From Eledone cirrhosa (taxonomy: Eukaryota): 64,000 bases of DNA. The DNA lies in assembly GCA_964016885.1 (NCBI GenBank), contig OZ024764.1, positions 4,960,001-5,024,000 on the forward strand, written 5' to 3'. Of the stretch, positions 709-60,222 are shown piece by piece. The translations under genes and the position numbers were made by a program. The notes below the pieces were generated by a model. The model did no database searches and was not told the origin of the DNA. It worked only from the letters and a program-made list of their open reading frames with translations. Positions within the stretch are counted from its first letter, which is position 1. Each line of letters begins with the position of its first letter.

Positions 709-750
709 GACTGATACAGAGGAGGGTACCGCTCCAGAAAATAATGACGA
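709..750 (+). CDS. Microexon E1 (class A1, 42 nt, phase 2-2): TDTEEGTAPENND(E)
   Basis: Acceptor ttttttgtaatcacAG, donor GTacgt; paralog of the exons at 30525, 46542 and 53905; open in the frame shared by all 13 exons. Confidence 0.75.
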
Positions 751-811
751 GTACGTTTTACATACTATCTAACCATTATTCTATCTGTTCCTTCCCGTCT
801 CTCTCTCTCTT

Positions 812-907
812 TATATATATATATATATATATATATATATATATATATATATATATATATATATATATATATATATATATATATATATATATATATATAT
901 ATATATA
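812..907. repeat. (TA)n microsatellite (one of many)
   Basis: Pure TA run; source of the IYIYIY ORFs. Confidence 0.98.
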
Positions 908-1035
908 GTAAGGTGTATTACTGGTTGTGTAAAACGGTCCAATAAATTTTTGTTAGCAATATTAAGTCTCCACGCTTTTGTATATCTCCAATTCCATTCA
1001 AGGGAACAGCTAGATGATGTAAAACGGAGTATTTC

Positions 1036-1141
1036 TATCAAAATGAAAATCCGAAGGCAAGGTAAAATTTCCAATCATTTTAATCACATCGTGATTAAAA
1101 TGATTGGAAATCTTACCTTCCTTTGGATTTTCATTTTGATA
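1036..1141. repeat. Long palindrome/hairpin (about 50-bp arms) downstream of class A exons
   Basis: tatcaaaatgaaaatccgaaggcaaggtaaaatttccaatcattttaatcac ... gtgattaaaatgattggaaatcttaccttcctttggattttcattttgata; copies near 18397, 29765, 30802, 46831, 53097, 54178 and 60428. Confidence 0.9.
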
Positions 1142-56305: not shown

Positions 56306-56308
56306 ATA

Positions 56309-58410
56309 TCATATATGCCAGTGTACAAGTTGACATTTGGAGCCTAAAAATATCTCTCCAAAACCAGGGGTCGACTTGTCTGCTGAATATAGTATGTTAC
56401 CTTTACCACTGAGGGGTATACAGTGAAACTGCCTGCCTAACACTTGTTGTACACCACTTACCATAACTCTAGCAACCCACCACATTTATTTCTACTGAAT
56501 CTCATATTTGTTAAGTTTAACGTAGAGATTATAGTAATATCAATGTCTTGCTGTAGCTTATAGGGTAGGTTACTGTAGCGTAGGTTACCATAGGGTAGGT
56601 TACTGTAGGGTAGGTTACGATAGGGCAGGATACTGTAGGGTAAGTTACTGGAGGGTAGGTTACCATAGGGTAGGTTACCGTAGGGTAGTTTCCATTGGGT
56701 AGGTTATTATAGGGTAGGTTACCACAGGGTAGGTGACCATAGAATAGGTTACTGTAGGGTATTTTTCCATAGGGTAGGTTACCTTATGGTAGGTTACCTT
56801 AAGGTAGGTTACCATAGGGTAAGTTACCATAGGGTAGGTTACCTTAGGGTAGGTGACCATAGTGTAGGCTACCATAGGTTAGGTTCTGTATGGTAGGTTA
56901 GGTTACTATAGGGTAGGTTACCATAGGGTAGGTTACGATAGGGTTAGTTACCATAGGGTAGGTTACCATAGCGTAGGTTACTATTGGGTAGGTTACCATA
57001 GGGTAGGTTACTGTAGGTTAGGTTACGTAGGGTAGGTTACCATAGGGTAGGTTGCCATAGAGTAGGTTATTATAGGGTAGGTTACCATAAGGTAGATTAC
57101 CTCAGGGTATGTTACCATATGGTAGGTTACCATAGGGTAGGTTACTGTAGGGTAGGTTACCATAGTGTAGGATACCTTAAATTAGGTTACCACAGGAAAA
57201 GTTACCATATGGTAGGTTACTGTAGGTTAGGTTACCATAGGGTAGGTTATCATAGGTTAGGTTACCAAAGGGTAGGTTACTATAGGTTGTTACCATTGGG
57301 TAGGTTACTGTAGGGTAACATAGGTTACCATAGTGTAGGTTAATATAACATAGGTCACCATAGTGTAGGTTACCTTAGATTAGGTTACCACAGGATAGGT
57401 TACCATATGGTAGGTTACTGTAGGTTAGGTCACCATAGGGTAGGTTACTATAGGGTAGGCTACTATAGGTTGTTACTATAGGGTAGGCTACTATAGGTTG
57501 TTACCATAGGGTAGGTTACTATAGGTTGTTACCATAGAGTAGGTTACAATATGGTTGGTTACCATAGTGTAGGTTACTATAACATTGGTTACCATAGTGT
57601 AGGTTACCTTAATTTAGGTTACCATAGGTTAGGTTACCGTATCGTAGGTTACTGTAGGTTAGGTTACAATAGGGTAGGTTACTATAGGGTAGGCTACCAA
57701 TGATAGGTTATGATGGGTTAGGTTCCATAGGGTAGGTTACCACAGTATATGTTACCATATGGTAGGTTAGGTTACCATAGGGTAGGTCACCATAGTGTAG
57801 GTTACTTTAGATTAGGTTACCATAGGGTAGGTTACCACAGGATAAGTTACCATATGGTAGGTTACTATAACATAGGTTACCAAAGTGTAGGTTTCTATAG
57901 GTTGTTACCATAGGGTAGGTTACTGTAGGGTAGGTTACTGTAAGGTAGGTTACCATAGGGTAGGTTACCAGAGGGTAGGTTATTATAGTATAGGTTACCG
58001 TAGGGTAGGTTTCCATGAAGTAGGTGACCATAGGGTAGGTTACTATAAGTTAGGTTACCATAGGGTAGGTTTCCATGAAGTAGGTTACCACAGGGTAGGT
58101 TAACATAAATTAGGTTACCTTAGGGTAGGTTACCATAAGTTAGGTTACCATACGGTAGGTTACCATAGGTTTGTTAAGGTTAGGCTAGGCTGGTCTACAC
58201 GGTGAGTTAAAACTCACTTGTGACTGTAGTGTTTTAGAAGAAGTGTCTTAATCTTTCGTGCACCACTAAATTTTTTAACTATTTCCCCTGAAACTGCCTT
58301 ATTTTGGGGAGGTTATCTTATCAATCGAATAGCGTCCTAAATCTAAATTACACCTCAGAATTTTAGGGGCCACGCTATGTACCGGATAGACTTGTACACC
58401 GGCATATATA
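56309..58410. mobile_element. TIR element with 15-bp minisatellite, copy 6
   Basis: Same termini as copy 2. Confidence 0.75.
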
Positions 58411-60180
58411 TATATGCAAAGAGAGCGAGAGAAACAGCGGGAGTGAGAGAGATACATTAAAACAATAACAGAGGTCTGACTGGAGAATTTACTTTAGAAT
58501 TTTAAGAGAAAAGAGGAAGGTTTCAGACTTCTGGAATTCCTTCACGAAAATGTCCTATTTATCTGGAACACAAACTTCAAAAAATGAGACAACCACTTAA
58601 TAACATATAGATCATGTGAGCCCACCAGCTAGATAGATTTCCTTGTTACCATAAGACAGAGTGACTGTTATAAACACAAAGTCCCTCCCTAGTGAAGAAT
58701 GCACCTCCCAACATACCTTAGGAGACAAACTGGAAGAAAAGATTATAGATCAAAATCAAAAGGTCTTAAAGTCAATTTGGTAAAGACTAAAGTTCTAGTA
58801 AGTAGAAAGGAAAACAGGGCCCAGATCTCTTCAGGTAAACTGTCCTGCTCAGTGGGCAGAAAAGGAGTAGGTAGAAATTCCATCCTATGTCCCATATAGA
58901 AATGATGGGTACACAAAAGATGTCGTGGGATCTCAGGAAGGCTAACAAAGAACGTAGCTTCTACATGTGGCCAGTGAACAGGAGATGGAAATATCAAGAG
59001 CTCTCGGGTTACAATCTCCTTCAAATACCCGAAAGTCTCTGTAGAGGTGGTAGATAGTTTCTGTTACCTAGGTGACTAAATCAGCAGTGGAGTAGGGTGG
59101 TCCCAAAACTCAGTAACAAGAGTGAGATTAGATTGGAGAAAGTGCAGGGATCTACTACTACTGCTAACAACAAAAAGTTTTTCCCTCAAAATGAAGGGCA
59201 GACTGTATGATGCAGGTATACAAACAACAATGTTGCACAGCAGCGAGACCTGGGCACTGTGTGTAGAAGATCTGTAAAGATTGGAAAGAAATGAAGCCTC
59301 CATGCTTCAATGGATGTGCCATAGTAATATATGCAAATGGCAAAACATAAATGTACTGCGAGAGAAATTAGGCATAAGAGGGGTTAGATGCAGTGTGCAG
59401 GAGAGGGATTGTTTTGGTATAGACATGTGATGTGTATGAAGGGTGACAGCTGTATAAAAAGGTGCCGAACAAACAAAGTTGACAGAAACCGTGGAGTGGG
59501 CAGGTCTAGGAAGACATGGGATGAGGTAAGGAAAGCTGACTTTGCACAATTACACCTCGCTAAGGCAATGACACAGGAGGGTGACCTCTGGCGCTATGCA
59601 CAATTATAGAGGACCTGCCCTCATAAATCCACGAGCTGAGGCATATATCTAGTATGTAACACCTTCCCCACCATCATCCCTCCCAAACACCTTCACCCCT
59701 ATAACTACATCCACAATCCACCAGACATTTTCCCTACCAACACCCCACACAAGTTCCCAAACCTCACCATAAAGTGGTCCTGCTGCAGCCATGACAAACG
59801 TGTCCAGTCCACACTGTACAGTGGTCTTGTAGGTGTCCTGCCAAAAATCAATATTGGGCCTTAAAACCTTGAGTCCCTTTTGTTCTGTGTATGAACATAA
59901 ATAATTGTTTCTACTTTTGGCACAAGGCCAGCAATTATCCAGTGCATTACTGGTACTTTATTTTATCGACCCCGTAAGGATGAAAGGCAAAGTTAACCTC
60001 GGCGGGATTTGAACTCAGATCATAAAGGGACGTAACTCTATGCTTCAAAGCATGGTGTCCGACTCTCTACCGATACTGCCAATCCACCACCCTGAACATA
60101 AATAAATAATGTAATATATATATATATGTATGTGTGTGTGTATCTATTTATATATTTAACTATATTTTTTGTAATCACAG

Positions 60181-60222
60181 GTCTGTTCCACTGCAGAGTT
60201 CCGCTAGAGGAAACAGTGACGA
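60181..60222 (+). CDS. Microexon E13 (class A2, 42 nt): SVPLQSSARGNSD
   Basis: Canonical AG/GTaagt; one nonsynonymous change relative to E3/E11. Confidence 0.8.

Follow-up and report, generated by a model that had tools for sequence, protein, structure and literature searches.

At least 97 short symmetric exons precede neprilysin-like M13 exons on one contig of the octopod Eledone cirrhosa

What is encoded by a run of very short open segments scattered through repeat-rich DNA? The question is raised by a 64,000-nucleotide stretch of the 3.0 Gb genome of Eledone cirrhosa (contig OZ024764.1, here C25:4960001-5024000, referred to as the window), where a first-pass annotation had proposed a hidden gene composed of 13 microexons, which we call E1 to E13. 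Are these segments coding exons? To what kind of protein do they contribute? Are they joined one after another, or is a choice made among them? The 13 segments are real coding exons from the middle of a larger array. The annotation was correct that they belong to a hidden gene; what it missed is that the array lies before a transmembrane (TM) exon and exons for an apparent type II membrane protein of the M13 (neprilysin) family.

The starts and lengths of all 13 segments were confirmed and give eight exons of 42 nt, two of 78 nt, one of 36 nt and two of 30 nt, 588 nt in all, each on the plus strand. Two types are present. The type-A exons, all of 42 nt, occupy window positions 709..750 (E1), 18148..18189 (E3), 29530..29571 (E6), 30525..30566 (E7), 46542..46583 (E10), 52850..52891 (E11), 53905..53946 (E12) and 60181..60222 (E13). 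Type B comprises the long exons of 78 nt at 8128..8205 (E2) and 25029..25106 (E4), an exon of 36 nt carrying a Tyr-x-x-Val motif at 27853..27888 (E5), and exons of 30 nt at 37660..37689 (E8) and 40388..40417 (E9). AG precedes every exon and GTAAGT follows it, with GTACGT at E1; type-A acceptors end GTAATCACAG and type-B acceptors end CTCATTACAG, marking two types of cassette. All the exons are phase 2-2, and phase 2 is the only phase open in all of them. Phase 0 has stops in 12 (all except E9) and phase 1 in six (E5, E6, E7, E9, E10 and E12), as had been claimed, and the spliced frame of 588 nt is free of stops. The cassettes are also duplicated and rich in transposable elements (TE), in blocks approximately 85-98% identical with fragments of long interspersed nuclear elements (LINE). 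The window introns hold LINE endonuclease and reverse transcriptase fragments, a 15-bp satellite and microsatellites. A flank-motif scan of both strands, allowing up to three mismatches, found no 14th exon in the window.

A search of the whole genome with the exact splice-flank patterns finds 63 matches for type A and 43 for type B, against none of either type with reversed controls, and 105 of the 106 fall in three clusters on a single contig. One match on another contig (C23), 41 nt long and without the family flanks, was dropped from the family. The main array has at least 97 intact symmetric exons over 528 kb (C25:4871418-5399532), a lower bound because exons in C25:5054001-5304000 were fetched singly from pattern matches and that region was not read through. 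The count excludes two of 99 cassette copies, at C25:4902087 and 5084624, which have no consensus donor; one of the pair keeps a weak GT after partial loss of the consensus and the other has no GT. By length there are 53 exons of 42 nt, 17 of 33, 17 of 30, five of 36 and five of 78, every one a multiple of 3, separated by introns of 953-12,142 nt and carrying near-identical consensus splice sites throughout. None of the 97 exons has a stop in phase 2, whereas 78 have one in phase 0 and 34 in phase 1; for the 53 distinct exon sequences the corresponding numbers are 0, 39 and 20. Since every exon is phase 2-2 any gain or loss keeps the frame, and the earlier suggestion that exons could be skipped without a frameshift is borne out: any ordered pair joins in frame and no pairing of exon end with exon start creates a stop codon. 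Most type-B exons end in AT, which gives a Met codon at the joint when the next exon begins with G, and the joined array frame holds 41 Met residues, possible internal starts. Coding sequence makes up 0.7% of the 528 kb, so that a routine annotation pipeline would probably overlook the gene or cut it short.

Exon duplication as the means by which this gene was built is supported. Might the length of the array be inflated by mis-assembly of a smaller repeat? Several multi-exon blocks do recur with identical exons and the region is highly repetitive. However, there are 53 distinct exons, intron copies differ by 2-15%, the main segments read contain no N, and variants from other copies occur in public contigs, with the caveat that the runs concerned may derive from the assembly's own sample. 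We consider such inflation very improbable.

Having descended from two duplicated cassette types, the 13 window exons are not independent observations, and the chance test therefore uses changes between distinct copies. On a minimum spanning tree none of 202 substitutions between distinct copies creates a stop (P about 10^-3.1 by simulation), and the length of every alignment gap between copies, 13 of 13, is a multiple of 3. Divergence among copies is 0.25 for type-A exons (25 copies) and 0.35 for type B (20 copies), compared with 0.028 and 0.011, respectively, at intron bases +26 to +66. These figures come from copies in continuously read segments only, with the 78-nt exons left out of type B, and the low values next to the exons are partly ascertained because those flanks were used to find the copies. 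The ratio of nonsynonymous to synonymous differences (pN/pS) is approximately 2.2 for type A and 0.9-1.3 for type-B classes, which are partly saturated or unaligned. Synonymous sites of the exons also diverge more than the introns. Gene conversion that homogenises introns, together with selection that keeps exons distinct, may therefore contribute as much as positive selection.

To what protein do the exons belong? A TM exon of 113 nt (C25:5413283-5413395, phase 2 to phase 1) lies 13.8 kb past the last array exon and encodes a hydrophobic stretch of 19 residues with a peak Kyte-Doolittle (KD) value of 3.04, where the tail encoded by the array nowhere exceeds 0.49. It is followed by 17 M13 ectodomain exons with GT-AG boundaries and matching phases, from C25:5416317 to about 5629520. 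One of them, a putative exon of 188 nt at C25:5444591, was set by reading through an internal GT, since the phase chain then closes and the expected length is restored. Splicing the 97 array exons and 18 downstream exons in silico (115 in total) produces one stop-free frame of 1,900 codons in a gene that would span approximately 770 kb. The array contributes 1,289 of these codons, and the TM exon plus an ectodomain of roughly 575 residues the other 611.

Sequence comparisons place the predicted ectodomain in the M13 family. The C-terminal part aligns with an octopod ECE-like protein (P0003) at 34% identity over 209 residues (E 1e-29) and with a second octopod ECE-like protein at 29% over 296 residues (E 5e-29). 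In a genome scan the last exon (C25:5629413) scores 25.2 bits against PF01431, above the cut-off, and it matches neprilysin structures with E 1e-4; human neprilysin, too, is matched by the downstream part. Three of the seven single exons tested give weak Pfam M13 matches. The N-terminal half gives one weak M13_N Pfam match, and the BLASTP alignment begins only from residue 328. The motifs VNAFY (C25:5453942) and ENIAD (C25:5624765) are both present, the latter followed by LGA, not xGG. The hydrophobic exon links array and M13 exons in phase, as a type II anchor would, an orientation that is suggested by the family.

Other motifs of active neprilysins are altered. At C25:5618006 the HExxH zinc motif reads HKIFH, with lysine in place of the catalytic glutamate; the C-terminal CxxW is lost by a change of cysteine to leucine, and the histidine of the conserved HSP motif, a residue with a catalytic role, is a tyrosine. 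The ectodomain is probably without peptidase activity, and by the criteria set out in PMC8223033 the predicted product is neprilysin-like rather than an active neprilysin.

Is the gene then decaying? Passive unequal crossing-over, driven by TE and satellites, could multiply functionless cassettes in a pseudogene in the making. Consistent with this are the glutamate to lysine change, the satellite of approximately 160 kb in one intron, loss of the consensus donor in two of 99 cassette copies, and the many identical copies, which indicate that expansion is partly recent. Yet the 611-codon frame of TM and M13 exons is intact with GT-AG throughout, the 53 distinct exons have no stops and in-frame indels only, and exons that diverge so much more than the adjacent introns are unlike the product of neutral drift. 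In addition, neprilysin-like genes without catalytic motifs are known elsewhere and are expressed (PMC8223033). We regard decay as unlikely. The satellite intron (C25:5458654-5617350) was read at both ends and in three 1-kb samples and is apparently composed of a 46-bp unit, which is the next exon's own splice acceptor and first bases; if continuous it would hold roughly 3,400 decoy acceptors. One of the paralogs described below, at 7.17 Mb, holds about 6 kb of the same satellite.

The TM exon occurs in four copies, all on C25, each with exons of the same kind upstream. Beside the main gene these are a minus-strand paralog at 7.15-7.30 Mb with six upstream exons and the zinc motif HEIFH, a paralog at 25.08-25.35 Mb with nine and HEIFH, and a paralog at 7.48-7.55 Mb with a single upstream exon and HQIFH, the exon numbers referring to the ranges read. 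With its one exon, the last of these seems to retain the ancestral condition. Compared with the two distant paralogs, the TM exon of the main gene is 31-35% different, the 80 nt upstream of it 5-7%, and three M13 exons 1-10%. The inverted paralog (C25:7229434-7315666, minus strand) has flanks 97-99% identical to those of the main gene, and its 5' part is duplicated; each of the two copies, 52 kb apart, includes the first exon of type B, the first of type A and a portion of the candidate 5' block considered below. The last exon of the family occurs a fifth time at C25:24978256-24978339 (minus strand), where one cysteine is changed, and this copy may be a gene fragment; the TM-exon search found no TM exon to match it.

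On which side of the membrane would the array product lie? Members of the M13 family are as a rule type II proteins whose active site faces outwards (PMC2259306), and the array product is therefore most likely the N-terminal cytoplasmic part of a type II membrane protein. The tail has a mean KD of -1.07 and a net charge of -116, and is acidic and rich in serine and threonine. It contains 22 Tyr-x-x-hydrophobic motifs, and seven sites fit the spacing of immunoreceptor tyrosine-based inhibition or switch motifs (ITIM/ITSM). Most type-B exons end in basic and then hydrophobic residues, like the last exon before the TM exon. Two paralogs have cysteine pairs in the exon before the anchor, which are possible palmitoylation sites. 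A dibasic site after the anchor in the main gene and the 7.5-Mb paralog could permit shedding of the ectodomain.

The opposite arrangement would follow from an unseen first exon for a signal peptide, with the repeats forming a glycosylated region outside the cell, or a precursor from which peptides are released at Lys-Lys sites, perhaps from a transcript separate from the M13 exons. The array frame does contain 37 N-glycosylation sequons, Lys-Lys occurs in many type-B exons, and products that are exposed or secreted typically diversify fast. The sequon count is, however, near the 30 expected from composition. Moreover, in all four paralogs the next in-phase exon after the array-type exons is the TM exon, with basic residues before the anchor and M13 exons after it, and in the approximately 81 kb scanned upstream there is no convincing signal-peptide or TM exon. 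We think an extracellular or secreted product quite unlikely. An extracellular-stalk reading of the array was rejected as the TM exon lies downstream.

How are the exons used? We favour, at about even odds, a reading in which the array is the 5' coding part of an octopod M13 gene and its exons are spliced largely in series into a docking or trafficking tail. An ancestral short exon before the TM exon, and a sister acidic exon type, would have been multiplied by tandem duplication along with TE-rich introns. The exons would be spliced mostly serially with some skipping tolerated, to give a hydrophilic, acidic, Ser/Thr-rich tail of up to about 1,290 residues, and this tail might serve the ectodomain, which would bind peptides and is probably non-catalytic, as a multivalent platform for trafficking or docking. 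Serial inclusion is favoured because the splice sites are uniformly of consensus type, internal promoter copies and docking matches were not detected, and one set of public reads hints at it. With regard to promoters, no copy of the candidate 5' block was found inside the array, a result that concerns this type of promoter only. With regard to docking, exon flanks were compared with the two bounding introns, and in none of eight exact-match tests, which are crude, did complementarity exceed that of shuffled sequences; the best of the eight was equalled by nine of 100 shuffles.

Public reads come from four runs of unrecorded kind (X1 to X4), all from one study, which were matched to window positions 24900-30620; distances to the piece end follow an inclusive convention, as can be checked on record 5 of X1. 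Pieces of X3 contigs that carry sister variants stop matching at 30525 (the first base of E7), at 30567 (the last base of E7 plus one shared G) and at 29571 (the last base of E6). In X1, X2 and X4 the same variants, where listed, lie 29-52 letters from the piece end, inside introns. A contig figure of 214.9 is listed in X3 for both an E7-like and an E6-like variant, and these variants are genomic neighbours in four of five places, the neighbour in the fifth differing by one base. There is a hint, then, that X3 is spliced sequence with at least one neighbour-to-neighbour joint, and such joining would argue against strict mutual exclusion. X3 also contains a 0.86 fraction of the sampled words from a mostly intronic 1.1-kb stretch, which does not fit readily with X3 being mRNA, though intron retention or signal from a paralog could be the source. 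Intron bins have scant X3 cover, to which we give no weight, and contig depth enters neither a ranking of exons nor an estimate of inclusion.

The alternative is that the same gene takes a subset of exons, or a single exon, into each transcript, and so presents one ectodomain on varied cytoplasmic tails. The first-pass annotation had suggested combinatorial or mutually exclusive splicing; the duplication and skippable exons that it described hold, whilst the lack of promoter copies and docking matches and the hint of neighbour joining in X3 give no support to the selective use that it drew from them. In favour of a device of this sort, whose tails would differ in motifs for sorting, phosphorylation or signalling, there are 53 distinct modules, any ordered pair of which is in frame when joined. 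Most type-B exons resemble the juxtamembrane exon as if they were alternatives, and the exons have diverged far beyond their introns, with the high type-A pN/pS. There is also a precedent in schistosome VAL-6, a conventional gene with a region like that of a micro-exon gene (MEG) (PMC4350168). Against it, besides the promoter, docking and X3 results, introns of at least 953 nt leave no room for steric exclusion. We judge subset choice possible, with clearly less confidence than serial inclusion. A further and more tentative extension is that octopods have a specific combinatorial system, in which a non-catalytic, receptor-like neprilysin has its tail built per cell or tissue from approximately 100 fast-diversifying Tyr-motif, basic and acidic modules; it might be an intracellular counterpart of Dscam or MEG diversity, ranging from 1 to 97 modules between paralogs.

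Several points weigh against serial inclusion in an M13 gene as we have set it out. The joint between the last array exon and the TM exon is a predicted one, and among the matches listed for the four runs, which are dominated by repeats, there is no exon-exon joint. The X3 hint itself depends on one run whose kind is surmised, and the link through the contig figure is indirect. Rapid divergence is commoner for exposed surfaces than for cytoplasmic tails. The lysine in place of the catalytic glutamate and the satellite intron of approximately 160 kb could mark decay. Protein searches found no close homologue of this M13 subfamily. Finally, although the adjacent regions yielded the additional exons (at least 97 in the whole array) and the downstream constant exons that the first-pass annotation had expected a flank-motif scan to reveal, they gave no in-frame start exon upstream of the array.

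A candidate promoter and 5' exon block does lie 12 kb upstream (C25:4857757-4859119), with TATA and CCAAT elements, and beyond this gene is shared by two paralog loci only. As a start exon it is doubtful; its ATG frame stops before the best donor and it has no convincing phase-2 donor. Within it, at C25:4857900-4858960, a tandem repeat of about 26 bp has grown to approximately 1.1 kb, and the single-exon paralog has one unit. An ATG/phase-2 candidate at C25:4860474 proved to be a dispersed repeat (259 candidates), and an element near C25:4866419 is a probable insertion, part of which is inverted between paralogs. ATG/phase-2 scans at the single-exon paralog revealed no start candidate shared with the main gene.

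Single-exon protein searches identified no relatives (0 of 10 candidates in one of them), two matches being repetitive and unrelated on inspection. Several further M13 genes of canonical appearance occur in the genome, with a cluster of three at C24:7.50-7.83 Mb, several loci on C3 and one region at C2:318.05-318.13 Mb. For one exon of such a gene on C24, identity is 87% with a protein of Octopus vulgaris and 76% with one of Argonauta, and one canonical-looking gene has an open frame of 705 codons where its M13_N match begins. Salivary and digestive glands of octopus are reported to express neprilysin transcripts (PMC12607849), with no tie to this gene. We found no published description of the gene itself in a search that had most subscription papers and supplements outside its coverage.

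How does the locus compare with known systems? In common with Drosophila Nepl genes, neprilysin and ECE-1, it has an M13 ectodomain containing VNAFY and ENIAD behind a predicted type II anchor, and it belongs to a local gene cluster; loss of catalytic motifs is reported for Nepl genes in PMC8223033. ECE-1, too, varies at its cytoplasmic N-terminus, which together with location distinguishes its isoforms. ECE-1 has a small tail with four isoforms from alternative promoters (PMC2567069), and in the octopod ECE-like P0003 the tail is some 60 residues long, whereas the array, with 97 or more exons, could contribute about 1,290 residues and showed no promoter copies in its interior.

MEGs have many short symmetric exons, long TE-rich introns and a high dN/dS, and the likeness noted in the first-pass annotation holds for exon anatomy as it does for TE context and fast evolution, the VAL-6 composite being the closest case (10.1101/2023.06.21.545858, PMC4350168). 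By the same accounts MEGs are schistosome-specific and have 10-20 exons, mostly of 15 bp, that encode small secreted proteins with signal peptides. Here exons of 30-78 nt, in two tandem-paralog types and some 5-10 times more numerous, are part of a 770-kb gene. Most of the coding sequence (3,867 of about 5,700 nt) is in short symmetric exons as in a MEG, but the frame runs into a TM segment and ectodomain, and no signal exon has been found so far. The product would be a large membrane protein, and the gene is therefore not a MEG.

Arthropod Dscam1 and chelicerate sDscam likewise have diverged exons by the dozen, duplicated in tandem within a single gene. Those of Dscam1 encode extracellular immunoglobulin parts and are mutually exclusive, in contrast to these tiny, low-complexity exons placed N-terminal to an anchor, and no docking sequence was detected here by the exact-match test. 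Cassettes of the sDscam or protocadherin type each have a promoter and first exon, and sDscam uses alternative promoters; they differ too, as the candidate 5' block has no copies inside the array. The neural microexon programme that depends on SRRM4 and its eMIC domain uses exons of 3-27 nt and a UGC placed close to their acceptors. The array exons are 30-78 nt long, and TGC is present in the last 25 intron bases of none of the 97.

The paralogs, with 1, 6, 9 and at least 97 exons on one contig, form a clean natural series for the expansion of symmetric exons, and exons that diverge about 10-30 times more than adjacent intron offer a case in which to study such divergence. If all the exons are included, the gene would encode an M13 protein with an exceptionally long tail of repeated motifs. 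If combinatorial choice proves true, it would be a new source of protein diversity in cephalopods, on the cytoplasmic side of the membrane.

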